The notes: generated by a model from the letters alone, not told the origin. 64,000 nt of DNA from Clostridia bacterium (GCA_017448975.1 JAFSKN010000028.1:2035-66034); one strand, 5' to 3'. Shown: positions 31,896-50,195, counted from the first letter of the stretch. Program-made: numbers and translations.

Positions 31896-31972
31896 CTGGG
31901 TGTAGCGCAGCTTGGTAGCGTGCTTGAATGGGGTTCAAGAGGCCGAGAGTTCAAATCTCTCCACCCAGACCA
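31896..31972 (+). tRNA. tRNA-Pro (anticodon GGG)
   Basis: Hand-folded cloverleaf of 77 nt. Acceptor CTGGGTG/CACCCAG, anticodon arm CTTGA-ATGGGGT-TCAAG, T-arm GAGAG-TTCAAAT-CTCTC, encoded CCA. Confidence 0.9.
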
Positions 31973-32032: not shown

Positions 32033-33169
32033 TTACAAAGACTGTATGAAAGACTCCATTTTTGAGGCACTGTCTTTCTGCATAGTCATAGTAACTGTTG
32101 CATAAACATCCATCGTGAATGCCACCGTTGCATGGCCGAGATTATTGGAAATCGTTTTGTAATCTACACCGTTTTGGATTGCCAAAGTAGCATAAGTATG
32201 CCGGAGATCATGCAGACGCACTTCCGGTAACCCCATCTTTTTCACAATGGATTTAAACCTGTTGAATACTGTTCGAGTTGCCAGATGGTGGCCGAACTCG
32301 TTTGTAAAGACAAAGTTTTCCTCATTGTGGTAGAGCGTTCCGTAATAGAGTTTCCACTCGGCTTGCTTAAGCTTCATCTTTTTCAGGGCTTTAACAACGC
32401 TGGGTGGTATAGAGAACGAGCGTTCCTGCTTATTCTTCAGCGTAGTGAAGGTGTAGGTTTTACTTTTACCGCGAAGCGCTTTGAACTGCCGATACAGATG
32501 GATCGTGCCTTTGTCTAAGTCCACACAGTCCCAAGTCAAGCCGATGAGTTCGGATTCCCTCATGCCGGTAAAGATCGCCACATAGTAGAATTCCTCAAAA
32601 GGATGCCCGTTGATGAGCCGAAGAAACTCAGGCACTTCGTTGTCCAGCAACGGGCGCATTTCCTTTTTCGGCGTCTCATACATAGGAATCTCCGCATCAG
32701 CACAGGGATTCTTTTTGACAAGGCCGTCTTTTTGCGCCCTGGTTATCGCCTTATTCAGAACAAGGTAGATATTCTTCAAAGACTTTTCGGACAATCCCTT
32801 TACATCTTTACAGCGCTTGAGGAAGCGCTGCACAGTAAGCAGCTTCAAGTCCTGGATTTGAATTTGTCCCAAATCAGGTTTGATGTGTACCCGGATATCC
32901 TGCATATATCGCTCAAGTGTGGAGCTTTTTACGCCTGATGTATAGCATTCTGCCCAGGTATCCATCCACTCACCCACGGTGATGTTGTTTTCATCCACCA
33001 AAGTCCCATTGGAATAGTCATTCTGTAATTCAGCTACTTTTTGCCGCACTTCACTTTTTGTTTTTCCATATACATTGAAACGCTTTTCATCAAGAACGAT
33101 ACGGCCTTCCCAGGAATTTGAAGTACGCTTTCTGAAGCTGCCCTCACCGTTTGCTCTTTTTGTTCCCAT
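32033..33169 (-). CDS. int: tyrosine-type site-specific integrase
   Basis: Start MGTKRANGEGS after GGAGG. C-terminal catalytic residues (..RLHDLRHTYAT.., LGHATVAFTMDVY). No TAG codons. GC lower than the flanks. Confidence 0.9.
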   Translation of the reverse strand: MGTKRANGEGSFRKRTSNSWEGRIVLDEKRFNVYGKTKSEVRQKVAELQNDYSNGTLVDENNITVGEWMDTWAECYTSGVKSSTLERYMQDIRVHIKPDLGQIQIQDLKLLTVQRFLKRCKDVKGLSEKSLKNIYLVLNKAITRAQKDGLVKKNPCADAEIPMYETPKKEMRPLLDNEVPEFLRLINGHPFEEFYYVAIFTGMRESELIGLTWDCVDLDKGTIHLYRQFKALRGKSKTYTFTTLKNKQERSFSIPPSVVKALKKMKLKQAEWKLYYGTLYHNEENFVFTNEFGHHLATRTVFNRFKSIVKKMGLPEVRLHDLRHTYATLAIQNGVDYKTISNNLGHATVAFTMDVYATVTMTMQKDSASKMESFIQSL

Positions 33170-33185: not shown

Positions 33186-33353
33186 TTAGAGTTGGCATTG
33201 TTCTTCCAGCCATCTGTGCAGCGCCTGAACGCTGACAATCGTTCTTTTCCCCAAGCGAAAAGCCGGGTAAAAACTCTTTTGACGTGTCAGGTTATACGCA
33301 GTTGCTCTGGAAATGTTCTACTGTTTCGCCTATTCTTCGACGGTTAGGGTCAT
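33186..33353 (-). CDS. excisionase-like HTH protein (read through 2 TAG codons)
   Basis: MTLTVEE[TAG]AKQ[TAG]NISRATAYNLTRQKSFYPAFRLGKRTIVSVQALHRWLEEQCQL. TAGs at 33330-33332 and 33318-33320. Classic Xis/AlpA-type HTH directly upstream of int. Confidence 0.7.
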
Positions 33354-33554
33354 TTTTGTTTCTTCTGTCGGAGTTATTCTGCTTTCAAGGTTCACATCGG
33401 AGTTTTCTCCGACAATTCTTTTCTATTCTGCCACTTTTATCAATCTCCTTTTCGCATTTTTGTTGACCTATAGCGCCAAAAACAATGAAATTTATGTTAT
33501 GACGCTTTTCCTTTCAAGAAAAGGGAACATAACATAAAAATCATTGTCAGGTTG

Positions 33555-34088
33555 TTACAAAGTTCTTTTCAAAATTTCTCTGTCCGTTTTCTTCAGCCAA
33601 GCTACCCCCACGGCAACAGCGTCACTCTCGTCGTTGGTGGCGTAATCCTGTTTTCCCACATACTGCTCCTATGCTGCGGCGACGTCTTCTTTGGTCGCTT
33701 TTCCCGATCCGGTCAGCAGCTTTTTCACGGTGGTCGGCGCGATTTCCTCAAACTGTGTTTTGCACATGCGCCAGGCAGCCAGGTCTGCGATGCCCACCAC
33801 CTTGAAAAGAGCCTGAGTTTCGTGCGGGAATCGGGAAAAGCCCTTTTCCCGTACGAACACCGCAACATCCGCGGAAAGTTCCGTGATCAGATCATAGATA
33901 GCCGCCAGAATTTCCCCGTGACAGAAATTCTGCCCGCGATGGTTCAGGTGACAGAGCCTTTCCACGGTGATTTTGCCGTTCTCATACCGCAAGACGGCAA
34001 AACCGGGACACCGCAAGGAGAGATCGGCGCAGAGGATGCGGAGAGAGTCTCCTTTTTTCAGCTCCTTATTGCTCATACGCCGTTTCAT
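33555..34088 (-). CDS. RuvC-like Holliday junction resolvase (1 in-frame TAG)
   Basis: ILCADLSLRCPGFAVL (catalytic Asp) .. VAAA[TAG 33669-33671]EQYVGKQDYATNDESDAVAVGVAWL. The start may instead be 34076. Confidence 0.7.
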
Positions 34089-34386
34089 AGGCGAACATGC
34101 CCCGCAGGATGGCGTGCGCCAGATGATCGTCTGTCTGATCTCCGGCCAAATAAGCGTACAGGTGCTGGATGGCGTGGTTTACATGCTCCTCGGTCGGGAT
34201 TTTCTTGTAGTTCCGATCCTGGAGAGACTCGTGATACTTTTCCGCGCCGTATTTGGCCGTTTCCGCCGCGGCAAACATGGCGTTGGGCGGCAGGAAGTGA
34301 AAGGCGTATGGCGTGGCAGACTGTGCGCCGCCTCTTTCGTTGACCACGGTGGGCGCGTCGGGCTGAACGCCGGTGATGATGGGCAT
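34066..34386 (-). CDS. dATP/dGTP pyrophosphohydrolase-domain (MazG-like) protein
   Basis: FLPPNAM..AKYGAEKY..HLYAYLAGD..DHLAHA pattern recalled from the phage dNTP pyrophosphohydrolase family. No TAG. Confidence 0.55.
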   Translation of the reverse strand: MPIITGVQPDAPTVVNERGGAQSATPYAFHFLPPNAMFAAAETAKYGAEKYHESLQDRNYKKIPTEEHVNHAIQHLYAYLAGDQTDDHLAHAILRGMFAYETAYEQ

Positions 34387-35042
34387 TATTCCGCCGCCTC
34401 CCCTCTCAGCAGGCTGTCAAAGCAAATCGCGCTCCAGGATTCCATGTGACCAGCTTTTCTGGCTTCCTGTAACTGCTTCACCGTGAACCAGTCGCCCATC
34501 AGCTTGTCTTTTTCCAGACAGGAAATATCCTCCCGATCAGTAGAAGTATGATAGATGAGGCCCAGATGAACGTGGTCAACCTCCGTCAGGGTGCTGGACA
34601 GAAAGCCGCACAGGGCAGCATCCGTGATTTCGTCCCGATGGAGTCCCACTTCTTCTTCCAGTTCCCGGTAAAGGGTGTCCAGAACGCTTTCTCCCTCGTC
34701 CATGTGTCCGCCCAGACCGATGCTGTTCTGGCCCAGCAGACGCTCATCCCCACCGATCCGGGTAGTCATGTAGATGCGGCCTGTAGGACGGTGCTCCACG
34801 ATCACATAGGGAATGACCTGCTTGAATTCCGGGTCAGATTCCGCTTTCCAGCGCGGCATAGCGGTCAAATGCTGTTCAATCACTTCCTGAAGCGCACAGT
34901 ACTCGTTTCCATCCTCGTCCGGCTCCAGGATTTTGGGATTGAAACCTTCTTCCTATAGCCCGTCCACCCATTTGGCTTCGATACCCATGATGACCGTGTC
35001 TCTGTATTTCGCTTTGTATTCGTCAGGCGTCATGTTCTTCTT
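34386..35042 (-). CDS. NUDIX hydrolase (1 in-frame TAG)
   Basis: Nudix box GLGGHMDEGESVLDTLYRELEEEVG. N-terminal extension MTPDEY..WVDGL[TAG 34953-34955]EEGFNP. Confidence 0.75.
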
Positions 35043-35511
35043 TCCTCCTCTGAAAATGCTCGGTTTCGTCGATCAGTTTTCCATGTTCTACCCGGTAAAA
35101 CCGCTGATTTGTCGTCCCGCTGTCCAGCCCGCCCAGGTTTTCATCATAGTGACCGATTTTCAGGTAATCCAGTAACGATAGGAACTGCTCAAACGACTGA
35201 ATGCTGTCGCAGCCGCTGTACAGGCAGGTTTTCTATCCAAATCCTCTGACGATTTCCAATGCCTGCCGCTATTCCGAGGGATTCTGACCTTCCCCCATGA
35301 AACACACGCAGGAGATAAGCCCTGCATACGTGCGGATCAATCCCGGCAGGGCTGGCAGCAGCAGTTCTCCCTTGTCCTCCCACAAATAGGGTGAATGGCA
35401 GCCGGAGCAGCGGAAGACGCAGTTGGAAACAGCGATCGTCAGGCTGACTTCCTTTGGCGCCTCCGCCAGCGTCACGGCGTATTCCATGTACCGCAGGGGT
35501 GTCTCAGTCAT
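35032..35511 (-). CDS. nrdG: anaerobic ribonucleotide reductase activating protein (2 in-frame TAGs)
   Basis: Radical-SAM-like Cys cluster (CVFRCSGCHSP), ..GEGQNPSE[TAG 35269-35271]RQALEIVRGFG[TAG 35233-35235]KTCLYSG..LDYLKIGHY..TNQRFY. Confidence 0.8.
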
Positions 35512-35749
35512 CCGGCCCCTCATAGCGGATATAACAGCCATCGCAAATGCGCTGCCCGTCCAGCGTGATGATGTGGCTGCCGGTGATCCAGCCGCCGCAG
35601 ATGGAGCAGGGATAAGCGTTGCGCAGGCTCACCCCGCCGCAGTAGGGACACATGCTGATTTTTTCGTAGGGCGGCGTGTCCAGCCCATGCTTTTCTTCCG
35701 CCTCTTGGGGCTGTTCAAATGTCCGCCCGCATTCCGTACAGATCAGCAT
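35504..35749 (-). CDS. zinc-ribbon protein, unknown function
   Basis: Four CxxC-type pairs (CTECG, CPYCG, CSICG, CDGC). Start MLICTEC 9 nt after GGAGGA. No TAG. Confidence 0.5.
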   Translation of the reverse strand: MLICTECGRTFEQPQEAEEKHGLDTPPYEKISMCPYCGGVSLRNAYPCSICGGWITGSHIITLDGQRICDGCYIRYEGPDD

Positions 35750-35940
35750 ACGGTCACATCCTCCGGCTATTCGATGTACTGCCCGCAGTCGCAGCCCTTC
35801 CCCTCCCGGAACGTCTGGCAGGGACATTTGTTTTCCGGGATGTGGCGCGGCTTGTTGGGACAGTAGCCGTTGTTCTGCCGGATGCGGCGTTTCAGATTCT
35901 TCAGAAACACCGTATCGGGATTCTTAATCACCCTGCCCAT
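35743..35940 (-). CDS. small Cys-rich protein, ferredoxin-thioredoxin-reductase-catalytic-like (tentative); TAG 8 codons before TGA
   Basis: YCPNKPRHIPENKCPCQTFREGKGCDC has CPC-x8-CxC spacing, as recalled for the FTR catalytic subunit. TAG at 35767-35769. Overlaps the nrdD 3' end. Confidence 0.4.
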
Positions 35941-37801
35941 GACTTGCCTCCAGACCCTTTGCGTAGTACCGCTGGTGTTCTTCCTCCTGCCGTGCCTCCG
36001 CGAACCGGGATACCAGCTTCAGATAGCCAATGACCCGCGTGGCGTAATCCAGGCTTCGGCTGTGACACTTGGGGCACTCGTCCAGGCGGTGCTTGCTGAT
36101 GTAGCCGCACTTTTTACAGAGGGTGTTGGGGATGTTGAAGGTCAGGTAATTGCAGCCGGTTCGGATGGCGGCCTTCAGCAGCAGGGCGTACTGTTCATTG
36201 GTCAGATGCTCGTCCAGGTTGATATGGCAGGCGGAACCGCCGTCCAGATATTTGGTAAATGCGCGGCCGTGCAGCTTTAATTTGTCCAGCACATTCACCT
36301 TGGGATCTTCTACCCGGAAGAAATAGCTGTTGTAGCAGTCCCGGAGCACGAACAGCTTGTCCGCCTTATCCCAGGCGGCATTTTTGACGCCCAAGGATTC
36401 CGCAGGTACGAGTTCGGTATTGAACAGGATGCCATCCTTCCGTGCCTTGCGGTTAGCCTCGTAGATCGGCTGCAATACCGCTTCGGCATAAGCGATATAC
36501 TGGGGACTGTCCGCGTCGATCTCGATGCCCAGGGCTTCCGCGCCTTCCAGGAAACCGTTGACGCCCACGGTCAGATACTGCTTCTCCGGGGAAACGAAGC
36601 CCGCGTCATAGACCGGCAGCAGGCCGGCGGCCTGACGCTCCTTCAGGATGGCGTTGAAGGCCAGCAGGTACTTGTGAACCTTCTCCACCATCTGCGTCAT
36701 GTCGTCCCGGACGTCCTGCAAGCTATTGTCCCAGACGGCGTTCTGCACCAAACGATTGACATTGATGGTCATGACGCACTTGCTGCCCGTGGCAACGCCG
36801 CCAGCGCCTAATGTGTAAGAAAAGGTATTGTCCGGCAGTTCATTTTTCTACCGACAGCACGATGCCAGCGAATCCACCGAATCGGAGCGGTACACGAAGA
36901 AGCTGTGTCCTTCCGCCCACATTTCCGCCACGAAGTCAGCCCATTCCTGATCCACGAAATCCTCGCCGTTGTCCAGCAGGTTCACCGTTTCCACCGGGAA
37001 GGTCAGCAGCTTGCGCTTCCGTTCCTGATTGAACCAGCGCATGAACCGCTTTTGAAGCCAGGACACCGATTCCCAGTGCATCTTGGTGCCATCCGGAAAG
37101 AAAAAACTCTCAAACATCCCATAGAAGTACGGCTGGTCAAAATAGGCGATATTCCAGAAGCAGGACTGATTTCCGCGGGCGGCAGCAGGCTGATTGATGG
37201 AATATACCACCTGCTCAAAGGCGTCGGTGATCACCTTATCCATGGTGCGGTGGCGAGTGGATAAATCTACGACCTCATCAGGGCGTTGGTAATAATCGTC
37301 ACCGTACTCCTTGCGGATGAAATAATCCATGTAGCTGAGGAACTCCGGTGTGGAAATGGCCCCGCAGAACTGGCTGGCCAGGGCGAATACCAGGTTGATG
37401 AACGCGCCGCAGAAGGAGGAAAGGTTCTTGGGCGCTTCGCTGGTGCCGCCGATACAGGTATTGCCATAGAACAGAAAGGGATACAGGGTCACGCTGGCAC
37501 AGTAGGGCTTGCCTAAAATACCTACTTCGTCGTGCCGATACAGTTCATGCTCCTCCAGCTGCCGCAGGTATTCCTCGGCGGTGTTGGTACCGTACATCTC
37601 CTGGAGCTTCCGGTACATTCCCAGGCGGTTGATGGCGACGGCGTCCGCCTTGTAGATTTCCGTTTCCAGGGTGGCGATGTTCTTGTTTTCCACGTTGGCA
37701 TTGGGATCGACCTCGCTGCCGGTGGCGGCATTGGATGCCTTTCCATAGCGGTCAATGAAGCTCTAATGCCGGCTGTGATCGGTATATTTGTCAATTCTCA
37801 T
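35924..37801 (-). CDS. nrdD: anaerobic ribonucleoside-triphosphate reductase (2 in-frame TAGs)
   Basis: 625 codons once ORFs 36848-37693 and 35924-36772 are joined: ..SLASCCR[TAG 36848-36850]KNELPDNTFSYTLGAGGVATGS.. Glycyl-radical C-terminus ATRVIGYL. N-terminal TAG at 37763-37765. Confidence 0.9.
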
Positions 37802-38432
37802 TTTGCCCATCCTTTCTGCTGTCCTCGATGGAAATGCCATCGAAAATAATCGGTATTCTTTCTTTGGCCTGCTCCAGCAGCAGCGCCATCTACGCCCGCA
37901 TTTCCGGGTAAGCCGCCGGATCGGTGCGGAGCGTGAAGATGTGCAGCCACTCCCGCAGGTTGGCCTTCATGATGATTCTTGTTGCGGTGGAATTGGGCTA
38001 CACCTTCCGGGCGTCCTCCGGCTTAATGCCGTGAGCCAGCATATCGTGATAAACCTTTTCCGCGTCCTCCATGCACTTCCGCCAAAGCCCGGAAGCCCAG
38101 GAGCCTTCCCGATAGAACAGGGGCCGCACAAAGGAAATCTCCCCGCTCATGTTCACATACCGCTGGCTTTCGATGCAGAAGCTGGCCAGCCTGTGCCGGG
38201 TAAGCTCCGCCATCACATCCCGGGACGTGATCTATTCCACCGTCATGCCTGCAAACTCCACAGGCGATAGATGGCCCCGTTTCAACAATGCTTCTACAAA
38301 ACGCGGCGCGCTGTCCTCGGTGATTTTGGCTTCCGAACGGTAACAGTTTCGGCCTGCCTGCTCAATCTGGCGCAGCGCCTGCATTCCGTCCTCCGGGGTG
38401 AGGATACGGGCAGATTGCTGAATGATCTTCAT
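37791..38432 (-). CDS. thyX: FAD-dependent thymidylate synthase ThyX (3 in-frame TAGs)
   Basis: RHRLASFCIESQRY ThyX motif. TAGs at 38232-38234, 37998-38000 (ARKV[TAG]PNSTAT) and 37890-37892. Confidence 0.85.
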
Positions 38433-38785
38433 TCCGCTTCCTCCGTTTCCGACGCTTCTTCTGCTTCAGTGCTCATGCTGGCCTCCTCATCCTATTTCGC
38501 TTCTGCCTCTGCTTCCGCTTCGGATGGCATATCGCCATTCAGCCGCGACATCATGGTGCGGTAGGTCAGCCCGCAGCCGATCACCGTGCCGCCGTCCAGC
38601 ACCAGCACGCTTTTCGTGGCCCGGCCAAAGGTCATATCTACAAACTGGCAGGGCTTGGCTTCCTTAGCCGCCCGGATCTATCGCCGGGCGCTGGCGGTCT
38701 GTGGATTGAGTACCATGGAAACCCGGTTGGCGCAGACCACATGGCCAAAGCCGGCATGGATAAACCGTAATGGGATCGTGTTCAT
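38429..38785 (-). CDS. RemA/DUF370-like protein with acidic tail (2 in-frame TAGs)
   Basis: IHAGFGHVVCANRVSMVLNPQTASARR[TAG 38678-38680]IRAAKEAKPCQFVDMTFGRATKSVLVLDGG matches the RemA pattern recalled from Bacillus. Second TAG at 38492-38494, before the Glu/Ala tail. Confidence 0.6.
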
Positions 38786-38823
38786 TTCTTGCCTCCTTCA
38801 TATTTTTCGCGCGGGAAGCGCGT

Positions 38824-38908
38824 TGGTAGGAGCAGCGGGATTTGAACCCGCACGCCGTAAGGCAAAGGTTTTAGAGACCTCCGCGTCTGCCAGTTCCGCC
38901 ATGCTCCC
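38824..38908 (-). tRNA. amber suppressor tRNA, anticodon CUA, on a tRNA-Leu (type II) scaffold
   Basis: Hand-folded, 85 nt. Acceptor GGGAGCA/TGCTCCT, D-arm TGGCGGAACTGGCAGACGC, anticodon arm GAGGT-CTCTAAA-ACCTT, long variable arm TGCCTTACGGCGT, T-arm GCGGG-TTCAAAT-CCCGC, discriminator A73, encoded CCA. Confidence 0.9.
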
Positions 38909-38944
38909 CCGGTTCAGCCAGAGATGGACCCTGGCTGACGCGGA

Positions 38945-41900
38945 TCACGGGATCAGCTCATAATCTGTGATCCACAGGTCGAACATATCGGAACGGGGAC
39001 GCGCCTTGCCGTCGATAAACTGATACGCGGGCCGCCGATCCCAGGAAATCAGGCGGAGGATGGCTCCCTCCGCAATGGGCTTTGCCTGGAACAGCGCCTT
39101 TTTGAGCTTCATGACGCCCGTGTGTCCCGTGGACAGGCTGCACAGCTTCACCTTGGGGCTGTAGCGCTCGTCCACCTCCAGCACGGCGTACTCGCTTTTC
39201 AATTTCGGGAACAGGGAGACCGGAGTACCGCAGTGGTCGATCTCAAACCGCGCCTGCTCATGGGGCGGAATGGTTTCCTCCGGCAAACTTCTCTCGATTC
39301 CGCGAAGAACGCGCAGCCGCGCTTCCCGGGTCTTAGGGATATGGGCTTTGGAGAAGTGCGATTCCCCTTCCCGGAATTCCCGGTACATCTTCTATAGCTT
39401 TCCGTTCCCGCCGAACTCCCGGAAGTAATCCAGCCGGATGAGAATTTCGATCACCTGGGAATCCAGGGCGGGATGCAGCTCCATATCGTACAGCAGATCG
39501 GTAAAGCAGGCATAGAAGCCATCGCGCATGGCGTACAGCGCCTCGGCCGCCTTGCGGCTGATGTGCTTTACCGACGTCTATGCGTCGGAAATCGTCCGGG
39601 CTTCATGGTCGATGTAAAAATCCCGGTTATCCTGCCTGAATTTGCAGGGAACGATGCGGATGCCGAAGCCCTTCCGCATTTCTTCCTTGGCAAGGGATAT
39701 GCGGTCTTTGTCTCCCTTGGCGGCATAGCCGGAGAGCAGGGTGGTGTAGTATTCCAGGGGATGATGGGCTTTCAGCCATGCGCCGTAGAGGCTGTCCAGG
39801 GCGACGCAGACGGCATGGCTGGAATTATATAAATAGCTGGTCGCGTCCTCTATGATCCTCCAGACCCTCTCAGCGGCCTCCGGATCGCTCTTGGCCGCAA
39901 AACCCTCCAGAAATCGCTGCTTCAGGGGCAGCACCTTTTCCGGGTGCTTTTTCCCAATGGCCTTGATGGCCGCATAGGATTCCGGCGCAGAAAACCCGGC
40001 GTGCTGAAGCGTTTTCATCAGCTGCTCCTGAAACAGGATGAAGCTGGACGACATTTCCCGGGTCTGGATCAGGGTGTCGAAGGCCGGAATGCCGTAATCA
40101 AAGTGCTTCCGGGCCAGAAAGATGGGCAGCATGGATTTGAAGGCAGGACGTACCGCCGCCACAAAGGCAGCCAGCTCCGTAATGTTTTTCGGCTTGTACT
40201 GCATCACCTTTTCCCGCGTTTTTGGCTGCTCCACCTGGTTCAGCCCCATAGTCAGTCCTTCCGCGTACATACGCCACGTCTCCTTATCCTGGGCTGTGAG
40301 CCGCAAAAGCTCGTTCACATCCGGCTGCTCCATCCCAATGCGTTTGAAAGCTTCGTTATTGGTTTTCACCACTTCCACCAGAAGCAGGTCATTCTTTAGA
40401 TATCCGAACTGCTCCGCCGTCGCGCCGTCGATGAAGGCAGCGTAGACCGTCTTTTTCCTGGTTCCCTTGCTGTTGATGCGGATGATCCCGATTTCCCTGC
40501 GGATGTCCTCCCTGCACAGCAGATAGGCGCAGGGATGCGGGGAAATGGAGTCGATCACGCCCATGTACTGCTCGCTGGCGGCGGCCAATTCCCGGTATTC
40601 CTCCGGGATATAGTCGGAAAGGGCGATTTCCTCGTCGTCCTCCGCATATTTGACCGCTGATTCGTAGGCTTTCAGCTTGTCCCCGATGCTGTTGGCGATA
40701 TCGAAGGAAAGATTGGAAGCCCGGCAGTACATTTTCCAGGCGGAAAGCCGCTTCAGGGTGCCATAGGCGATCATAGGAGCGCTGCGCCACTCTCCTAAAA
40801 CCTCTGCCTGGGCTTCCTCAAAGGCTTCCCGGTTGGCTACGTTCATGTCGATATCCGGCAGGCTGCCGGACAGGATTCTGTCCGCCGAAATGAACCGATC
40901 CGGGAACATTTCCACAGGGATGGCGAAGCGGTCAATGGAGGACAGGCCCAGCAGGGAGTTGGTGTAGTAGCTGGGTGCGCTGCCGCGTCCCGTTTTGGTG
41001 ATGATGCCGCCTTTTTCTACGGAGCGGCGCACCAACTCGTGATCCAGTAGGAAATAATCGCTCATGCCGGTGGAGGTGACCACATCCGTTTCGTATTTCA
41101 CACCTTTCGCACGGACACTCTTTTCTTCCTTCGTCATACCAGCGGTTTGCTGTTCAAAAGCGGCGTTCACCAGATCGAGATACTTATGATTCCGTTCCTC
41201 CTGTGTCAGTTCAGGATAGATGGTGGGCAGCTTTTTGCTCTTGTCGAATTCCACATCCTCGAATGATTCAAAGATGCGGGTATTCTCCATGGCCTCCCGG
41301 ATTTGCGCGTCGGAAAGAACGCCCTGCCGCTGAAAGCGCTGAAACGCTTCCGCGCCGGAGGGATAATCCATATACCAGCCGCCTTCGTCCTCGTAGAGAA
41401 TGTGGTTGGCTTCCAGCCGCTGCTGCCGAAGGGTGGCGTCCCGCGGATGGATATAATGACTGTCGGTTCCCATGATGAGGGGAATGCCGTGTTTCCTGTA
41501 CAGGCCCAGCAAGAATTGGTTGACCTCTCGCTGCTTGTCCGTGTCGTGATACTGCACTTCCTACATGAAGCTGTCCCGAAAGTGCTTTGCGAAACGGAGG
41601 ATCAGGCGTTCCGCCTCCTCCCAGCCGTACTTGAACACCCCGGCAATGCAGGCCGTGGTCACAAACACATCCTGCGGGTCAAGGGCCAAAAGCAAATCCA
41701 GATCGACACGGGGGCGGTAATAGTACCCGCTGATGTTGGCTTCGGAGAGGGCGAAATTCAGGTCGCCGACACCCTTCCGCGTTTTAGCGGCCAGGATGAT
41801 GTGACAGTTGGCGTTATCCTTTTCCCGCCTGTCCTTCACGAAATAGGCTTCGCTCACATACCGCCACCGCAGGCCGTATTTCTTCGCCAGCTCGGAGCAC

Positions 41901-42109
41901 TGCCAGTAATTGCCCTGGGTGCCGTGCTCGCAGGAGGAAAGAATGGTATGCCCCAATTCTACGGCGCGCTTAACGTAATCTTCGTTGGTCACCACGCTGT
42001 CGGTCAGCATCACGTTGCTGTAACAGGAATGCCGGTGATAGCAGGCGTAGGGAATTTCCTTTTCTTCTGACGCTGCGGACAGAGGGACGGGCTTTTCCTA
42101 AAGTGTCAT
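38945..42109 (-). CDS. dnaE: DNA polymerase III alpha subunit (4 in-frame TAGs)
   Basis: 1054 codons once three ORF fragments are joined. PHP domain (YHRHSCYSN..), ..RDSFM[TAG 41561-41563]EVQYHDTD.., pol core, ..TISDA[TAG 39578-39580]TSVKH.., ..GNGKL[TAG 39392-39394]KMYREF. A TAG at codon 4 (42098-42100) applies if the ATG at 42109 behind AAAGGAG is the start. Confidence 0.9.
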
Positions 42110-42115
42110 AACGGA

Positions 42116-42889
42116 TTACTCCTTTATCCCGGAATGAATGATTTCTTCGCCCACAGGACAATGCAGGCGGGTGGAGCAGATGAAACGGCAGAAATAGCCG
42201 GAGGAAGAAACCAACCAATCTTTTTCTTCTTTTATCGCTCGGATCGTCTGATCGATCCAGTCCATGGTTTCATCGTACCGGTCCATGGAAAAGGGCTCGT
42301 CGATGAATGTACCGTAGCGGAACATATTGAACCGCAGCATGGATGGGTATTCTCCGAACCGTTCCTTCACATACGCGGCGTAAGTGTATAGCTGCCGGGT
42401 ATTGGCGAACAGCTCCTTTTTCATGGACTGCATGGACTTGGATTTGTGGTCGATGACGATGATGCCGCCATCACGCCTGTCCCTCAGTACCAGATCAGCG
42501 ATGCCCACAAAGGGATTGCCACGGATATCCAGTTCAAACCTTTCCTCCACGGACAGGATTTCCATATCCTCCCCAAAGCCGTCGAAGGACAGGAAATACT
42601 GCTTCCCTTCCTCAAAGTATTTTCCGGCCAAGCCCCGGGGAAAGGGCGGAAAGTAATGCCTGACCGCCTCGTCGTACTCCGCTTCATACCTGTCCGCCAG
42701 TTCAAAGGACAAGAGCTCCCCTTTTGCCCAGCGCTCCAACAGGCTGTGGCAATGCGAACCGTACTCCGCGTAAGCGTTTTGCTCCTGGGGAACATGATCA
42801 ATGTATTGCAGCTTGAACGCCAAAGAACATTGATCAAATAGCTGCTACTTGCTGAATGACCATTTCATGTCATGCGGTATATCACACAT
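42116..42889 (-). CDS. PD-(D/E)XK nuclease, Cas4/RecB-like with 4-Cys cluster (1 in-frame TAG)
   Basis: MCDIPHDMKWSFSK[TAG 42845-42847]QLFDQCSLAFKLQYI.., IADLV..VIDHKSK, C-terminal CRFICSTRLHC. Confidence 0.75.
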
Positions 42890-42899
42890 ACTACCTCCG

Positions 42900-44690
42900 T
42901 TAAAAGGGATGCGCCGCCTCCGCCATCTGCACTGCGTATTCCGGCAGGCTGTCCGCCCGGGGATTCGGTGGTGTGACGCCCTCCCTGTTCCACGAGAATG
43001 TATTCCTGTCGCCCTTGTCCGCCTGATAGATCCTGCGGCTGTCCGGGCAATAGCAGCACTCGATCAGCCTGCACACGCCGCCTTCCCGGTTTTTCAGCAC
43101 CCGCAGGTTGGGACGCTCCACGACGATGGCGCTGTCCGCCTATCGGATGGTGGCGCTGCTGCCGCCGATGTCATCCTGGCCCAGCTTTTCGCCCTGCTTC
43201 ACCTTGCGGGGATGGGCCACCAGCAGCACATGGACGTGATACCGTGTGGCGAACTTTTTGAGGGCGTTGGCGAACTTGCCCTGGGCTTTTGTTTCCTCGT
43301 CCGAATCGGACAAAGCGGTCATCAGGTTGTCCGCCAGGAACAGCTTGCAGCCGTACCGCCGCGCCGCCATCTGGAAAACCTTCAGGATGCTTTCCGATTG
43401 GTTCACTTCAAAGATTTCCTGGTTGTCAAAGAGATAGAATTTGTCCCGATAGTAATCCATCTACCGTTCCTGCACGGCATACGGCACGGTGGGCACTTTG
43501 ATGCCGCGCACCGGGTCATACCGAAGCCCAATGTATTCCGAACCCGCAGCCTGGAGATTGATCCACTCCTGGAATTTCTCTTTGGTCAGTTCTCCGCTGT
43601 AGGCGCAGACGGAATATCCTTGTTCGATAGCGGTGAGCAGCAGTTGACCGGATAAGACGCTTTTTCCTGCCCCTGGCCGGCCTGTGAATACCGTCATTGC
43701 CCCTTCCGCCTATCCGCCAATCAATTCATCCAGCGCCGGGATCATGGTTTTGATTCGTGGAACGGTGGTAGGATCGTAAGGAACCACATCCGACTACTGA
43801 ATGATTCCCTTGACAGGCACCGGCTGAGCGGCGTCCAAGGTCTCCTGAAGCGTTTCCGGCCCATAATAGAACAGGATTTCGTTGGCGTCCTTGCAGGGTG
43901 TGCCGTCCGGTTTGTCTGGGTATTCCTCCACCACCATACACCGTGCTTCATCCAGCCGCCGCACAGCCTCCCGCACCATTTTTCTGCCCGGCTCGTCGCT
44001 GTCCCCGAACAGGATGATCGTCTGAAACTTCTCCAGCCAGTCCCAGCAATGGTCGATCCAATCCAGATTGGTGCAGCCGCAGGGAACGGACACCGCGTTG
44101 CGGATTCCCACCTCATACAGGGAGAGCGTGTCGATCTGGCCTTCCGTGATGATCAGGGGCTGGGAGAAGGAGCATAAATCCATGCCGAACAGAATGGGCC
44201 GGGTGTTGGAAGCCTGCCACTCCTTTTTCTCCTTGGGCTGGGGCTTGCGCGGCGCCCGGTATTTCACATATTCCTATGTTCCGTCCCGGAAGAAAGGAAA
44301 AACAATGTTGCCCTTTTCATCCGCCCCCAGCCGGAAGGTTTCCAGCGTCGCTTTTGATATCTTCCGTTTCTCAAAGTACAGGATGATTTCTTCTGTCAGC
44401 GGCTTTAGTTCCACATCCGGGAGCGCAAACTGTTTTCTTGGGGAGGCGGCGGGACGGAGAAGCTCCGCCCGCTCGCCAAAGTGTTCCGCCAGGGTCTCGA
44501 ACCGTCCCTTGACCCCGCATCCGCCACGCTTGCACACATACACGCCATCCCGCAGGTTCAGTGCGAAGGTGTACCGGTCATGGCTGTCGCCGCCGTGACA
44601 GAAGGGGCAGTAATCCGGGATGAGCTCGTCCCCGCGCAGCCGGTATGGGGTCAGGTGCGCCGCGGCGAACCTCAGAATGTCAGCCTGCAC
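42900..44690 (-). CDS. bifunctional primase-helicase, T7 gp4-like (5 in-frame TAGs)
   Basis: Zn finger CPFCHGG..CKRGGCG, TOPRIM (ITEGQIDTLS, FGDSDEPG), and helicase Walker A LDELIGG[TAG]AEGAMTVFTGRPGAGKS. TAGs at 44274-76, 43794-96, 43710-12, 43461-63 and 43140-42. Confidence 0.85.
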
Positions 44691-45234
44691 AGGGACACGC
44701 CTCCGAACAGCATTGATAGCGCCGTCCCATTTGAAAAATGCGGCGGGATATCTGGCTTTCGCTCAAGCCCACGGCCTGGCTGATTTCCTTCTAAGAGCAG
44801 CCATCCAGCCGCATAACAAGGATTTCGCAATCTTGGCCGGATAAATCATGCAAGAAACGTTCCGTGTCCACGTCGCCGATCACCTGATCCTCCATCTGCA
44901 CCGCTTCATGCTGCACGGCTGGTACATCCAGGGACAGAATGAACACCTTCCTGATTTCTACCCGGAATCTGCGCTGTGGAATGCTCACGGCCGCCATCCT
45001 GCGCACATACTCTCCCAGGGCGTGGATAACGGCATAATAGCAGTTTTCCGCTTCCTCCAGGGTATCGGCGGCACGGAGCAGGAGCAGCAGCGCCTACCGC
45101 GCTTCCTGGCGTAGATCCTCCGTATTGTCGGGATACCGCCTGCCCGCTTTTTGCTGATACCGGCGCACGAGCCTTTGAATATCCCTCTCATGCTCCTTCA
45201 GGAATTGGGCTTCCTGTTCCATTGTCATGTTCAT
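44680..45234 (-). CDS. sigma-70 family (ECF/phage-type) sigma factor (2 in-frame TAGs)
   Basis: Region-2-like EDLRQEAR[TAG 45094-45096]ALLLL and region-4 HTH LSGQDCEILVMRLDGCS[TAG 44791-44793]KEISQAVGLSESQISRRI. Confidence 0.55.
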
Positions 45235-45247
45235 GCGCTCCCTCCTG

Positions 45248-45613
45248 TCAAATGGGCAGATCGTCTTCGGGTGGGGCGGGCGGAGCAGCCTGCGTCTTTT
45301 GCGCCGGAAGCTCCATGTCCGTGATACTCACCTGAACGGAGGTACGCTCCACACCGTTTTTGTCCAGATAGGGACGGATGACCAGATCGCCCACCACGGT
45401 GATCTTATCGCCCTTGTGCAGGTACTGCATGGCGATCTCGGACAGCCGGCGCCAGGCGCTGCACCGATAGAAATTGGTGATGTATTCGCCCTTGGCGTCC
45501 TTAGTGCGGGTATCCGCCGCCTATGTGAAGGATGCGCAGGGAACGTCGCTCACCTGGGAAAGAACAGGATCAGCCGTCAGACGCCCTGCGGCAGTCAGTT
45601 TGTTTACGCTCAT
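45248..45613 (-). CDS. ssb: single-stranded DNA-binding protein (1 in-frame TAG)
   Basis: OB-fold N-terminus MSVNKLTAAGRLTADPVLSQVSDVPCASFT[TAG 45521-45523]AADTR.. and an acidic tail ..PPEDDLPI. ATGA overlap with the upstream gene. Confidence 0.8.
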
Positions 45614-46641
45614 GCTTCAGCCCCCTTGAATTCGTCATAAATCGCCTGGAGAACCCTTTCGTCAACGATTGCCCGGTAATTGGCGGTGCCGCCGGTAATG
45701 GCCCGCATCCGCTGGGCGATCTTCTCCCTTTCCTCCTGGGTAATATCCGTGCAGCAGGCTTTCATCACCGCGTCCACCTTTTCAGCCAGGGTCCGGGTAT
45801 CCTCCTCTGAAGAAGGCGGTTCAGGGTTCGATTCAGACGGCTCCTTGTTTTGTTGCTTCACTTGCGGCTTTTCCGCCGACGGCGCAGGCGCGTTCTTGTC
45901 CGCGTCGCCCAGCCAGCCCGCGATTTTCGCGCCGGTGTCCGGGGTGATCACGAAATACTGGCCGTCGAACAGGCCGGTACGATCCTTGGTGGCGGCTGCG
46001 GAATGATCCTGGGCCAGCTCAAAGAACACGCTGAACTCGTACTCCAGCCCTTCTCGGAAAATAGGTGCCATACCCACCTTGCGGGGCGCTTTCTTGCCCT
46101 GCCCGTTGTCCTCGATGACGTACTCCGTCTTGGTGCGCAGGGTAGCCGCCACGTGCATGGGGCATTGCAGGATCTTGTCCACCAGCTTATTGTGCAGCGG
46201 GGTCACATCCCGCCAGGCGGTATAGCCGTTGCCGCTGCGTTTGGCGATGTTGGCCTGCATATCCAGCAAGCCGCCCTCGCCGGACCAGGCGTGGGACAGG
46301 GAGTCGATGATCAGGAACTCCACCCCCGCGTCCTCCGCCGCTTCGATGGCTTCCAGATACCTGGCTGCGCTGAACGGCGCTTCCAGGGCGATGGCCAGGT
46401 ATTCTCCGATCCGGGTACCGCCCACCACAGTGCCCACATATAGGCTGCCGGAGCCGTTCTCCGTGTCGATGACGCAGATTTTCTCCCATACCGCCTCATT
46501 GGAGATGCCGGGATGCACCGCCCGAACCTACCCGAAGCCCATGAGCAGGGTGCTCTACGTTTTCCCGCTGCCGGAGCTTCCCGCCACGCCGATCTTGAGG
46601 CGCGCCATCTGCCGTTTCGCTTTGACGATTTGAATAGCCAT
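45610..46641 (-). CDS. RecA-like AAA ATPase (Sak4-type recombination protein) (2 in-frame TAGs)
   Basis: Start after GGAGGG. Walker A GSSGSGKT[TAG 46555-46557]STLLMGFG[TAG 46528-46530]V.., Walker B FLIIDSLS. Confidence 0.7.
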
Positions 46642-46852
46642 TTTCAATCCCTCCATTCATTTTGGCCTTCATAATATAAGAGATGCAATTTTCGCGATTT
46701 CTTGCATCGCCGGCCAAAAATATTTTTTGCACACTCACCGTGAGTCTGCATCTGATGGGCCCCATTATAACAAAGGCGGAAATCCGCCGCAATGTGGAAC
46801 TTTTTTCGCGGAGGAAGTGAAAGTGTCATATGGTAAGCATTTCTTCTCAACG

Positions 46853-46888
46853 AAAAAAAGCCCCGCCCCACAGCTTGTGGAGCGGGAT
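46853..46888 (-). terminator. rho-independent terminator after the hydrolase gene
   Basis: On the minus strand, an ATCCCGCTCCACA/TGTGGGGCGGGGC stem followed by TTTTTTT. Confidence 0.6.
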
Positions 46889-46917
46889 GTAGCTTTCCAA
46901 GAGATCATAAATCTCTT

Positions 46918-47886
46918 TTACCTCACCGGCATATACCGCTCAAGATACGTTTCGATGGCTTCCATCCACTGTCTGTTCACCGTGTCGTCGTTTTGCAGTC
47001 CATGCCCGGAATGGGGCAACTCAAAGTACTGAAAATCCACATTGTTTTCTTCCAGCGCTGCTTTCAGGCGCAGAGAACCAAGATAGGGCTGAACCTTATC
47101 GCAGGTTCCATAAGCGACAACGGAGGGAACAGGATTGCTGCTGACCCATTCCGCGGCAGCAATGGGCTTGACCTTTTCCAGATACGTTTTATCCTGAATC
47201 TCCTGTGCCGTGATTTCAACGCCCGCCATGACGCTGAACATCCCAGCGCAGGCTTCATCGTTCTGATCCAGCCCGTAAATGCCCCAATCTTCCTGATAGA
47301 AGCAGGAGGGACCGACCGCCCCGAACGTCAGGACAACAGGGACAGGCGCTTGGGCGCCGTCACGATAGGTGTAAATCATGGCAAGGCAATGTCCTGCTGA
47401 ACCGCCTGCCATGGTCAGCTTATCAATGTGATACCCGGCCTTTTCAGCTTCCTCGATCACAATTGGAATAGCCGCTTTTATCTCGTTGGACTGAGAAAGG
47501 ACGCTGGCGCTGTTGACATCTGTCCGTAAGGTGTAGTTGATACCGGCGGCCACATAGCCCTTACTGCACAGCCAGGAAAGCATCTCTTTGTCGCCTGCCT
47601 TGTCCCCGGAAGTAAAACCACCAGCATGAAGATAAACCACCAGTCCGTAGCTGGCATGTGTATTGTCCTTCGGCAGATACAAGTCAAACTTGTTCGCTGC
47701 CCCTTCGCCGTAATCAAGATCGGTTTTCCGTGTTCCGATCTCGTCGCTCCACTGGATAGCGTACTGCTTTGCCCAGGCAGGTTTGATGAAGACTTTCGAG
47801 GCTGCTCCGACAATAACAGCCAGAATAAAAACCAGAATTCCCAGCCAAATGGGCACGGCTTTCACCTTCTTCTCTCTTTTGCTCAC
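46918..47886 (-). CDS. alpha/beta hydrolase (esterase/lipase type) with N-terminal TM anchor
   Basis: HGGG-like YLHAGGFTSGD and nucleophile elbow AGGSAGH. Lower GC than neighbours. Confidence 0.75.
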   Translation of the reverse strand: MSKREKKVKAVPIWLGILVFILAVIVGAASKVFIKPAWAKQYAIQWSDEIGTRKTDLDYGEGAANKFDLYLPKDNTHASYGLVVYLHAGGFTSGDKAGDKEMLSWLCSKGYVAAGINYTLRTDVNSASVLSQSNEIKAAIPIVIEEAEKAGYHIDKLTMAGGSAGHCLAMIYTYRDGAQAPVPVVLTFGAVGPSCFYQEDWGIYGLDQNDEACAGMFSVMAGVEITAQEIQDKTYLEKVKPIAAAEWVSSNPVPSVVAYGTCDKVQPYLGSLRLKAALEENNVDFQYFELPHSGHGLQNDDTVNRQWMEAIETYLERYMPVR

Positions 47887-48146
47887 AGGAAATTCCCTCC
47901 AAACAGCATACCGCCCAGCAGCATATTCATGAAAGCCCTGACCGCCAACCGTCCGAGAACAAATCCGATAACGACCAGCGCCGCGATTACAATGATTCGT
48001 TTTGCCTCAATTGACATTTTGCACTCTCCTCCCATTTGATTCTTGACAGATTCAGCACTGTGTGCTATTCTTGATTTGCTAAAACATTTGTTTTAGCGAT
48101 AATGATTGTATCAGCAAGTGGCGCTGTTGTCAATGGGAGGAGCAAA

Positions 48147-48683
48147 ATGGAACAAAAACGCAAAACTGTATCACCGTTCAGCAATGAAGCCAGGAACGCC
48201 TATGTGGTAGAACATATTACGGATTCACTATTGACAAGACTGAAAGAAAAGCCGCTGGCGGATATTGCCATCAGCGAGCTTTGCGATGCGGCGGGGGTCG
48301 GCAGAACGTCCTTTTACCGCAACTTTGAATCCAGAGAGGATATTGTTAGAAAATATATTCGCGGGCTCCTGAACGGCTGGAAGCACAATTGGGATGCCAC
48401 GGGCGAAGAATCTAACGCTAAAATGTACGGAAGCCTGTTTCAGTATTTGAAGGAGAATGCGGATTTATTTCTCATGCTAAAGACACGCGGCTTGATGTAC
48501 CTTTTCCTCGAAGTCTTTATGGAAATCTGGGGGCCAAGGCCGGAATATGAAAACATTTGGGCCTATACTACAGCCTTCATCGCCTATGGAACCTATGGCT
48601 GGATTGAGGAATGGATCAATCGTGGTATGCAGGAATCCGCTGAGACGATGTCGGAGATGCTTTTTTCGCATGGTATGAAGTAA
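48147..48683 (+). CDS. TetR family transcriptional regulator
   Basis: HTH ISELCDAAGVGRTSFYRNFESRED. Start 7 nt after GGGAGGAG. Confidence 0.8.
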   Translation: MEQKRKTVSPFSNEARNAYVVEHITDSLLTRLKEKPLADIAISELCDAAGVGRTSFYRNFESREDIVRKYIRGLLNGWKHNWDATGEESNAKMYGSLFQYLKENADLFLMLKTRGLMYLFLEVFMEIWGPRPEYENIWAYTTAFIAYGTYGWIEEWINRGMQESAETMSEMLFSHGMK

Positions 48684-48786
48684 AATATATCGTTGTTAAA
48701 CCGCAAATATGAAATACATTTTCCTTGTAATTCCTATATGCTTTATGTATAATGGACGTGGAAGAATAATGGGAGGTTGACGTTCG

Positions 48787-49245
48787 ATGCCGAAAAAGAA
48801 AATCACTACGATCAAAGAGCTTCGCGCCGCGCAGAAGCTGTCTCAGGCTGCCTTCGCAAAAACGATAGGCGTAAGCACAGCCTCCGTAACCGCCTATGAA
48901 GCAGGCCGGGTGAATCCCAGCGAGAAGGTTCTGGAAAAGATCAGAGAAGTCTATAACGTGGATTTGTCTCCCAAGCCAGTAAAGAAAGCGAAAGCGGCAA
49001 AGCCTGCCGCAGAAAAGCTCAAGGCACCCAAGGCAAAACGCGCAGGCAAGGCAAAGGCCGAAAAGAGCGCGCCTGCGCAATCAGAAAAGACTGAAATCAT
49101 CATCCAGTCTCCGATGGGCGGAACCATTACGCCGGAGGAAATCATCGCCAGGATCGGGGCTGCCGATAAGATTTATATCCGCGTGGACGAGAACAAAGCC
49201 TATTGGGTAAAGGGCGAGGAGACCGGCAGTATTGATCTGTGGTAA
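48787..49245 (+). CDS. XRE-type HTH protein with Lys/Ala-rich (histone H1-like) linker
   Basis: HTH LSQAAFAKTIGVSTASVTAYEAG, then KPVKKAKAAKPAAEKLKAPKAKRAGKAKAEK and a small C-terminal domain. Confidence 0.65.
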   Translation: MPKKKITTIKELRAAQKLSQAAFAKTIGVSTASVTAYEAGRVNPSEKVLEKIREVYNVDLSPKPVKKAKAAKPAAEKLKAPKAKRAGKAKAEKSAPAQSEKTEIIIQSPMGGTITPEEIIARIGAADKIYIRVDENKAYWVKGEETGSIDLW

Positions 49246-49283
49246 GTAAAAAAACAAAAGAAAAAACAGAAAGGGGCATCACC

Positions 49284-49562
49284 ATGAACAAGCGCGAACT
49301 CATCGAAACAGTATCCTCCAAAGCGGAAATCACAAAGAAAGAAGCTGATGCGGTCGTCAATGCGACCCTGGACGCGATCATTGAAGGACTTGCCTCCGAA
49401 GGCAAGGTGATCATCCCCGGCTTCGGTTCCTTTGAAGTGCGGAACAAGACCGCCCGTGAGGCCCGCAATCCCCGTACTGGCGAAAAGATCAAAATTGCCG
49501 CGAAGAGAGCGCCTGCGTTCAAGCCCGGCAAAGCGATGAAAGACGCCGTGGAAAAGAAATAA
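49284..49562 (+). CDS. hup: HU family DNA-binding protein
   Basis: MNKRELIETVS.., ..FGSFEVRNKTAREARNPRTGEKIKIAAKRAPAFKPGKA. Confidence 0.9.
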   Translation: MNKRELIETVSSKAEITKKEADAVVNATLDAIIEGLASEGKVIIPGFGSFEVRNKTAREARNPRTGEKIKIAAKRAPAFKPGKAMKDAVEKK

Positions 49563-49577
49563 GGAGCGGGCATAGGA

Positions 49578-50129: not shown

Positions 50130-50195
50130 CATATTTCGGTTAATCAAAGGGCTGCCGCAGAAAAAAACATCTGCGGCGGTTCGTTCATTTCCCAC

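Follow-up and report, generated by a model that had tools for sequence, protein, structure and literature searches.

The stretch of DNA analysed here, hereafter the window, comprises 64,000 nucleotides from Clostridia bacterium (GCA_017448975.1, JAFSKN010000028.1:2035-66034) and carries, between 33.2 and 46.66 kb, 13 minus-strand genes that together contain 28 in-frame TAG codons and use only TAA or TGA as stops. The genes are co-directional, are intact only when TAG is read through and encode functions in replication, nucleotide metabolism and excision; they make up a module of 13.5 kb in an integrated element adjoining a tRNA-Pro gene. Among them, between the genes for a DNA polymerase III alpha-like replicase (PolIIIa) and a RemA-like protein, lies a gene for a tRNA with the anticodon CUA. 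Codon alignments with related loci make it very probable that TAG stands for leucine in this module, and the wider explanation, that an element of ~43 kb adjoining tRNA-Pro in the chromosome of a gut or rumen member of Clostridia uses TAG as leucine in its replication, nucleotide-metabolism and excision operon by means of its own tRNA(CUA), is held with a confidence only slightly lower.

Counted from the integrase end of the element the module consists of an excisionase-type protein (Xis), RuvC, a dATP/dGTP diphosphohydrolase-like open reading frame (ORF), a NUDIX hydrolase, an NrdG-like protein, a zinc-ribbon ORF, NrdD, ThyX, the RemA-like protein, the tRNA, PolIIIa, a PD-(D/E)XK nuclease, a Toprim-DnaB primase-helicase, a sigma-like helix-turn-helix protein, SSB and an AAA_24 ATPase (Table 1). 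TAG accounts for ~7% of the leucine codons of this operon if read as leucine. Outside the module 42.7 kb of coding sequence contain no in-frame TAG at all, while the other two frames of the same sequence hold 47 and 7. A model working from the sequence alone and without database searches (the sequence-only reading) had placed the reassignment at 33318-46557, which runs exactly from the last TAG, in Xis, to the first, in the ATPase. Pfam or PDB matches support most of the gene identities (AAA_24, SSB, Toprim with DnaB_C, PDDEXK_1, RemA-like, ThyX, NrdD, NUDIX, RuvC and HTH_17), and two names of that reading need to be toned down, the sigma factor because it matches region 4 only, just below the Pfam cut-off, and NrdG because it has neither a Pfam nor a PDB match. 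In Xis the HTH_17 match extends over residues 3–52 and thereby across both TAG codons; no homologue of this protein was present in the collected loci and no usable match in PDB.

Relatives of the element were collected by scanning IMG/VR with the primase-helicase, giving eight loci with 60–89% identity that were each taken with 10-kb flanks, and by scanning GTDB with PolIIIa, giving eight more from Clostridia/Clostridiales metagenome-assembled genomes (MAGs) recovered from rumen and from the gut of sheep and goats. The proteins of the window, with X at each TAG, were aligned to the loci by tblastn and the codon below each TAG was read. Over 18 related loci this revealed leucine at 141 of 169 aligned sense codons, together with isoleucine at 7, glycine at 3, asparagine at 3, lysine at 2, glutamine at 1 and tyrosine at none. 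Leucine was in the majority at 19 of the 22 informative TAG sites and tied with isoleucine at one; the two remaining sites (codon 148 of the sigma-like protein and codon 98 of the RemA-like protein) are not leucine sites and are both located in variable regions. In the primase-helicase the TAG sites are leucine in 9–15 close relatives per site, and the counts for the other genes are given in Table 1. The leucine codons aligned to TAG are mostly CTG, CTT and CTC (CTN), two substitutions away from TAG, and mutational proximity is therefore no explanation for the pattern.

The claim of the sequence-only reading that the reassigned residue is leucine, and not the glutamine usually reported, agrees with these counts, and so does its statement that TAG sits where the protein families keep leucine or a similar hydrophobic residue. 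It had also proposed tabulating the residues at the TAG columns as a check; when this was done leucine dominated, and columns dominated by glutamine were not seen. The ten motifs that it had quoted were all recovered in the minus-strand translations, namely LDELIGG[TAG]AEG, ARKV[TAG]PNS, AKQ[TAG]NISRATAY, GFG[TAG]KTCLYSG, SFT[TAG]AAD, SFSK[TAG]QLFDQC, QEAR[TAG]ALL, ASARR[TAG]IRAAKE, ATIR[TAG]ADS and SCCR[TAG].

To read these proportions they were calibrated on the same genes and relatives. After removal of near-duplicate loci leucine is found at 103 of 123 codons (84%) aligned to TAG, as compared with 76% opposite the true leucine codons of the window, 3% opposite its true glutamine codons (57% of which are glutamine in the relatives) and 6–13% opposite its true isoleucine, valine and methionine codons; true tyrosine codons are tyrosine in 81%. 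Set against these rates the TAG sites therefore behave as leucine sites. A column-likelihood comparison gave log-odds of +58.5 bits for leucine and -42 bits or less for all other residues, of which isoleucine came next. The reciprocal comparison, in which the relative has TAG and the window a sense codon, gave leucine at 18 of 36 sites, valine, isoleucine or methionine at 10 and glutamine at 2. Taken together the columns show that the TAG positions are under purifying selection as leucine.

Homologues at a greater distance that use the standard code were inspected as well. Codon 145 of ThyX corresponds to the leucine of the AR.vLPN motif in the Corynebacterium and Mycobacterium ThyX of PDB and codon 181 to valine or leucine, codon 331 of NrdD corresponds to the leucine following ASCCR in the Thermotoga NrdD of PDB, and codon 31 of SSB is leucine in the Coxiella and Thermus SSB structures, while codon 36 of the RemA-like protein is isoleucine in the Geobacillus RemA structures. 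In the PolIIIa of three cultured Bacillaceae phages codon 183 is leucine in all three, codon 844 isoleucine, isoleucine and methionine, and codon 906 methionine, tyrosine and glutamate. Among 150 primase-helicase representatives with 32–64% identity leucine is the top residue at codons 139, 299 and 517, phenylalanine comes before leucine at 327 and isoleucine before leucine at 410, and glutamine occurs at most once per TAG column. Composition was also compared: read as leucine, TAG raises the leucine content of the module from 8.4% to 9.0% (9.2% in the host genes), and read as glutamine it raises the glutamine content from 3.7% to 4.3%, compared with 3.7–3.8% elsewhere (3.8% in the host).

Table 1. 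Features of the window, with the in-frame TAG codons of the recoded module and the residues aligned to them in related loci
Feature	Position	Strand	Basis or content	TAG codon (position)	Residue in relatives
Host chromosome	1-31.7 kb		ABC-F, VanW, NFACT, DXP synthase, thymidylate kinase (Tmk), L,D-transpeptidase, D-Ala-D-Ala dipeptidase		
tRNA-Pro(GGG)	31896..31972	+	ARAGORN and Rfam; host gene adjoining the element		
Tyrosine integrase, left end of element	32033..33169	-	Position and recombinase motifs in translation; intact in the standard code	None	
Xis, excisionase-type HTH_17 protein	33186..33353	-	Pfam HTH_17, E = 1.3e-10	8 (33330-32), 12 (33318-33320)	
RuvC-like resolvase	33555..34088	-	Pfam RuvC	140 (33669-33671)	Leu in 5/5
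NUDIX hydrolase	34386..35033	-	Pfam NUDIX	27 (34953-34955)	Sense codon in one relative, TTG
Putative NrdG-like activase	35023..35541	-	CxxxCxxC motif and position	91 (35269-71), 103 (35233-35)	91: TAG in all; 103: Leu 5
NrdD anaerobic ribonucleotide reductase	35924..37840	-	PDB 4coi, E = 1.5e-70	26 (37763-65), 331 (36848-50)	26: TAG in all recoded relatives; 331: Leu 6
ThyX thymidylate synthase	37791..38432	-	PDB ThyX matches	67 (38232-34), 145 (37998-38000), 181 (37890-92)	67 and 145: Leu 5; 181: TAG in every recoded relative
RemA-like protein	38429..38785	-	Pfam RemA-like	36 (38678-38680), 98 (38492-38494)	36: Leu 3
Suppressor tRNA, anticodon CUA, 85 nt	38824..38908	-	ARAGORN; Rfam RF00005, 54.4 bits (gathering 29)		
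PolIIIa	38945..42109	-	tblastn to phage PolIIIa	183 (41561-63), 844 (39578-80), 906 (39392-94)	183: Leu 14; 844: Leu 6; 906: Leu 5
PolIIIa codon 4	42098-42100	-	Uncertain; upstream of where relatives start aligning, may precede the true start	4	
PD-(D/E)XK nuclease	42116..42889	-	Pfam PDDEXK_1	15 (42845-42847)	Leu in 7/7
Primase-helicase (Toprim + DnaB_C)	42900..44690	-	Pfam	139 (44274-76), 299 (43794-96), 327 (43710-12), 410 (43461-63), 517 (43140-42)	See text
Sigma-70-like regulator	44680..45234	-	Pfam Sigma70_r4_2, 24.5 bits	47 (45094-45096), 148 (44791-44793)	47: Leu 3, Ile 3
SSB	45248..45613	-	Pfam SSB	31 (45521-45523)	Leu 5, Ile 3, Val 2
AAA_24 (Sak4-like) ATPase	45610..46656	-	Pfam AAA_24, E = 7.8e-19	34 (46555-46557), 43 (46528-46530)	34: Leu 6, Met 2; 43: Leu 8
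TAG-free right arm of element	46700..64000	-	Pfam, PHROGs; esterase/TetR cargo, second tyrosine recombinase (50199-51227), GP88, 810-aa and 721-aa proteins, ArdC (58500-59363), DUF4241	None	

Two further observations concern the TAG sites. A purine follows TAG at 24 of the 28 sites in the window (p = 1.3e-4 compared with 51% after leucine codons), which was considered as a suppression context and dropped, as the relatives have a purine at 33 of 56 independent TAG sites (p = 0.39); the bias was not replicated and no suppression context is therefore claimed. In some relatives the NrdD gene (L032:3047-5980 on the minus strand and L012:12325-15399 on the plus strand) encodes ~980–1020 amino acids owing to an in-frame insertion of ~346 amino acids at Cys329, two codons ahead of the window's TAG site in SCCR[TAG], and this insertion looks like an intein.

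ARAGORN and Rfam find two tRNAs in the window, tRNA-Pro(GGG) and tRNA(CUA). The latter, hereafter the suppressor, is encoded on the same strand as the module, 36 nt past the stop of PolIIIa and 38 nt before the start of the RemA-like gene, with no ribozyme or other Rfam family beside it in an Rfam scan. It has the D-arm TGGCGGAACTGGCAGACGC with a 3-bp stem, A14 A15 and G18G19 in an 11-nt loop, the anticodon loop CTCTAAA, a variable region of 13 nt whose 3-bp stem covaries (GC/AU, CG/UA), A73 and an encoded CCA. When the D-arm was compared with the host tRNA clusters adjoining related elements in two Clostridia MAG loci it was 95% identical to TGGCGGAATTGGCAGACGC of tRNA-Leu(UAG)/tRNA-Leu(CAG) and 55% identical to tRNA-Tyr of the same flank, and the CGTG junction ahead of the T-stem is common to the suppressor and the flanking tRNA-Leu genes. 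Annotated BLAST matches (50,697 phage records together with E. coli genomes) were all tRNA-Leu, with no tRNA-Tyr and no tRNA-Ser, and the sole tRNA-Ser among the collected loci (L038) has G73. The tRNA-Leu-like D-arm, the long variable arm and A73 named in the sequence-only reading are thus all present.

Eleven distinct copies of the suppressor fold with RNAalifold into one cloverleaf of 24 pairs, 18 of which have compensatory changes, and none of them departs from the CUCUAAA loop or from A73. These comparisons show the suppressor, as far as its gene and those of its relatives can tell, to be a conserved bacterial class II tRNA of the leucine type. The loop had been described as one substitution away from that of tRNA-Leu(CAA), and such a loop, CUCAAAA, was found in the tRNA-Leu(CAA) of Caulobacter phage CcrRogue; the loop sequences are consistent with an origin of the suppressor from tRNA-Leu(CAA) by the single change A35→U. 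The same phage has two annotated tRNA-Lys genes (anticodons CTT and TTT) of 87 and 90 nt with long variable arms (L042:5809-5990; JX100814.1, 50365-50546), a class II architecture that is unusual for tRNA-Lys.

Among the nine recoded relatives with long loci the suppressor was found for all nine, in eight of them directly after PolIIIa and in the ninth (L004) elsewhere on the contig (L032); L008, with nearly the same sequence as L004, is recoded and has no such tRNA within the locus examined. Three further recoded loci (L014, L017 and L018) are short fragments. Two relatives with 60% identity (L005 and L007) have neither a CUA tRNA nor a single in-frame TAG in ~1,900 aligned codons. Across the long loci, tRNA(CUA) and in-frame TAG go together. 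A 300-kb contig of an Eubacteriales MAG (L015) has a divergent CUA tRNA at 13185-13270, and among its 3,095 aligned codons no more than 3 are in-frame TAG; recoding could here be at an early stage or in the course of reverting.

An exact-pattern scan of the 2.9 million contigs of IMG/VR for a leucine-type D-arm together with CUCUAAA gave seven contigs, six of them from the family of the window's element. A broader pattern, TGGCAGNCNC-N6-CTCTAAA, was uninformative in the same database, since 35 of 37 stretches were chance matches in coding DNA without a tRNA. The seventh contig (L033; IMGVR_UViG_3300021400_001544) has a GC content of 44%, the tRNA at 484-566, genes at 1319-11713 and a distant replication module (PolIIIa 23% identical) with many TAG in DnaB, primase, PD-(D/E)XK nuclease and PolIIIa, while its standard-code relatives, at 61–67% identity, have no in-frame stops and no CUA tRNA. 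Opposite the TAG codons of this contig these relatives have leucine at 42 of 62 aligned codons, with valine at 6, isoleucine at 6, methionine, alanine, lysine and tyrosine at 2 each and glutamine at none. Reading TAG as leucine therefore applies to two lineages and is rare beyond them.

Several observations weigh against leucine inserted by a leucine-type suppressor. The comparison with the related loci leaves out six TAG sites (ThyX 181, NrdD 26, NrdG 91, PolIIIa 4, Xis 8 and Xis 12); codon 148 of the sigma-like protein stands in a variable column of glycine, threonine, asparagine and glutamine, and codon 98 of the RemA-like protein, in an acidic low-complexity tail, is opposite histidine, alanine or a gap and could be a leaky stop. 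Phenylalanine or isoleucine takes precedence over leucine at some sites in the distant homologues, a promoter of the module was looked for and not found, and the suppressor as a whole is 0.71 identical to the flanking tRNA-Tyr and 0.68–0.70 to the flanking tRNA-Leu. The window's suppressor also has a G1·U72 wobble (position 72 is 38827 in the window), as do the copies in L011, L012, L016 and L032, while those in L001, L002, L003 and L006 have G1-C72. Whole-tRNA identity was rejected as a test of isotype because it does not separate leucine from tyrosine, and the assignment is therefore based on the D-arm, A73, the variable-arm junction and the annotated BLAST matches. Ambiguous decoding or another residue, either through partial charging by tyrosyl-tRNA synthetase (TyrRS) or because any hydrophobic residue is tolerated and leucine reflects the chemistry of the sites, would fit the identity to tRNA-Tyr, which is as high as that to tRNA-Leu, the order of residues in the distant homologues and the noisier outcome of the reciprocal comparison, and a TyrRS route would fit A73, the long variable arm and U35-A36. 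We regard it as unlikely, given that tyrosine, so well conserved at its true sites, stands opposite TAG in 0 of 169 codons in the one lineage and 2 of 62 in the other, that leucine at TAG is far more frequent than at true isoleucine, valine or methionine sites, and that the D-arm and the annotated matches separate the suppressor from tRNA-Tyr.

The fragmentation of the genes in the standard code would also be expected if the TAG codons were true stops in a module of decaying pseudogenes with an incidental tRNA. Against this, homology is strong on both sides of every TAG and the frame continues with neither TAA nor TGA interrupting it, TAG itself is kept at several positions in relatives at 60–90% identity, and TAG co-occurs with a tRNA that has evolved by compensatory changes, which together make decay highly improbable. 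Pyrrolysine, which is used by some Clostridia, is suggested by the label tRNA-Pyl that ARAGORN gives to any CTA anticodon, and the label is thus explained by the anticodon alone. The tRNA-Pyl has a compact architecture, and with its 11-nt D-loop containing G18G19 and its 13-nt variable arm the suppressor is unlike it; no pyl genes are present in the window, lysine is aligned at 2 of 169 codons, and the pyrrolysine reading was rejected on tRNA architecture and aligned residues as the least credible of all. The phage literature takes glutamine (code 15) by default, the reading known from crAss-like, Lak and other recoded gut phages, and in E. coli an amber suppressor can be charged wrongly with glutamine (Borges et al., preprint, 10.1101/2021.08.26.457843). 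Here the near absence of glutamine below TAG in the window's relatives, in which more than half of the true glutamine sites of the same genes keep the residue, its complete absence in the lineage of L033, the class II leucine body of the suppressor in place of a class I glutamine one, and a glutamine content lifted above the level of the host leave glutamine with a very small probability, and leucine remains by far the preferred residue.

If TAG is leucine, the decoding may be explained with components of the host. Bacterial leucyl-tRNA synthetase (LeuRS) recognises A73, the D-arm and the tertiary architecture of its tRNA and not the anticodon, and because of this the host LeuRS would be able to charge the suppressor with leucine; the charged suppressor would then compete with release factor 1 (RF1) at UAG. 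Directly upstream of the tRNA no promoter match was found, and on the minus strand no terminator lies within the module or separates the tRNA from the adjacent genes. Since the tRNA is embedded on the same strand, without a promoter match of its own and without a terminator in the module, it is probably co-transcribed with the operon and then released by processing. Xis and the replication proteins would consequently be made at full length only after transcription of the operon and build-up of the tRNA, while the integrase, which has no TAG, and the remainder of the element would be readable in the standard code of the host. As Xis and all the replication proteins would need the tRNA and the integrase would not, the recoding may couple excision and replication to transcription of the operon, and gating by the suppressor tRNA can be put forward as a hypothesis by analogy with the lysogeny-switch idea of Borges et al.

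A broader proposal, which we consider possible but put below even chances, is that the window represents a family of elements of gut and rumen Clostridia, apparently without virion genes, in which TAG is leucine only in the replication and excision operon and the recoding serves as a lock on lysogeny or replication. The tRNA would in that case be the translational key, integration being possible in the host code and excision by Xis and autonomous replication requiring the tRNA, and recoding would have evolved at high GC, in early and not in late genes, by way of the anticodon-blind LeuRS. Outside the module 2 of 55 ORFs end in TAG (18843-19499 and 62939-63157, both on the minus strand), one of them among the 29 host ORFs and the other among the 26 ORFs of the right arm and neither with Pfam support, and with TAG stops this rare the host may pay little for suppression.

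The classical amber suppressor supP/Su6 of E. coli (leuX, tRNA-Leu5 with the anticodon CUA) inserts leucine at UAG, LeuRS ignoring the anticodon. Both are tRNA-Leu whose anticodon became CUA, the difference being that in supP a chromosomal gene was mutated in the laboratory, whereas the suppressor of the window is a conserved gene of an element, coevolving with dozens of sense TAG. In nature UAG is leucine in mitochondrial codes 16 and 22 (green algae and chytrids) and in the nuclear code of uncultivated phyllopharyngean ciliates, where the CUA tRNAs derive from tRNA-Leu(CAA/UAA) (PMC11687900). These codes have in common with the window a CUA tRNA from tRNA-Leu and UAA remaining a stop, and differ in being genome-wide, in eukaryotic nuclei or organelles, whereas TAG is here confined to one operon at 33.2-46.66 kb.

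For phages whose code is unlike that of their host the literature searched describes no reassignments other than TAG→Gln and TGA→Trp (or Gly), and Borges et al. (bioRxiv 10.1101/2021.08.26.457843) observed only TAG→Gln and TGA→Trp. For the phage suppressor tRNAs found beside theta ribozymes the isotypes predicted were Gln in 69%, Trp in 19%, Ile in 10% and Tyr in 1%, Leu being absent (PMC10879173); like the suppressor of the window these are tRNA(CUA) tied to recoding, in their case phage-borne, and the suppressor of the window differs in its leucine isotype and in having no ribozyme beside it. Compared with the TAG→Gln phages (crAss-like, Lak, Garnet and Topaz; Borges et al.; Peters et al., PMC9523058) the element is alike in having in-frame TAG in conserved genes, its own tRNA(CUA), a host with the standard code and recoding in blocks and not over the whole genome, and it shares a TAG-free integrase with the Garnet and Topaz prophages. 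It differs in reading TAG as leucine and not glutamine, in that recoding affects genes for replication, nucleotide metabolism and excision and not late or lysis genes, in its GC of 55–58%, as opposed to the low GC from which their recoding has been proposed to evolve, and in the lack of recognised virion genes. The full-text literature searched, whose journal coverage is partial, yielded no account of TAG→Leu in phages or bacterial mobile elements, so that an earlier report is possible. Measured against that literature the machinery is familiar; what is unfamiliar is the amino acid, the module affected and the GC regime.

The pipelines for recoded phages in the cited literature translate with code 15, i.e. 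glutamine, which for this family of TAG→Leu elements would be wrong at ~7% of the leucine positions of the replication proteins and would lead astray surveys of genetic codes, the prediction of structures and searches of mass-spectrometry data. Recoding by suppressor tRNA in bacterial mobile elements would thus not be limited to glutamine and tryptophan, and a synthetase blind to the anticodon would offer a one-mutation route to a new code. With a GC of 55–58% and a recoded replication and excision module the element also does not fit the current model, in which GC is low and late or lysis genes are recoded. The standard-code sisters (L005, L007 and L036-L040) form together with the sparse-TAG contig L015 a natural series on how reassignment starts, and a leucine-type amber suppressor from Clostridia may be of use in genetic-code engineering.

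The element itself lies to the right of a host flank and begins with the integrase next to tRNA-Pro (Table 1). In the region between tRNA-Pro and the integrase stop (31973-32032) a terminator hairpin, GGGAAGCCTTATGAAATAAGGCTTCCC, is followed by a T run, and the same region contains a tandem direct repeat in which ATGCCCCAACG occurs twice; an attachment (att) repeat matching the tRNA-Pro region was not found in the collected loci. Collinearity with one relative (L001) spans 33595-54745 of the window, and the element therefore extends rightward past the recoded block. Beyond the right edge of the window DUF2958 and a reverse transcriptase follow (~10 kb, L019), and farther right on the contig of L001 (~27 kb; L025 and L041) there is DNA of lower GC with a transposase, extracytoplasmic function (ECF) sigma factors and peptidoglycan-binding (PG-binding) proteins, from which the element is therefore estimated at ~43 kb.

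When ~42 kb were scanned with Pfam and PHROGs no capsid, portal, terminase or tail families were found, and many ORFs matched no family. The 810-aa and 721-aa proteins of the right arm have no match in Pfam, PHROGs or PDB, their matches being confined to unannotated metagenomic phage records and hypothetical proteins of Firmicutes megaplasmids. Relatives of the element are catalogued as viral in IMG/VR and its PolIIIa shares ~40% identity with the enzyme of cultured Bacillus siphoviruses (tblastn, annotated phage PolIIIa); that the element is a phage is not established by this, and its status as a conventional prophage may be doubtful.

Ahead of the recoded operon a strong terminator was identified at 46887-46861 on the minus strand. 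It lies within a block at 46700-48700 that comprises a BD-FAE esterase (46918-47886, minus strand) and a TetR regulator (48102-48683, plus strand) and that is not present in the otherwise collinear L001. The block looks like a cargo insertion, and at its right edge, between 48 and 50 kb, the GC drops to ~0.49.

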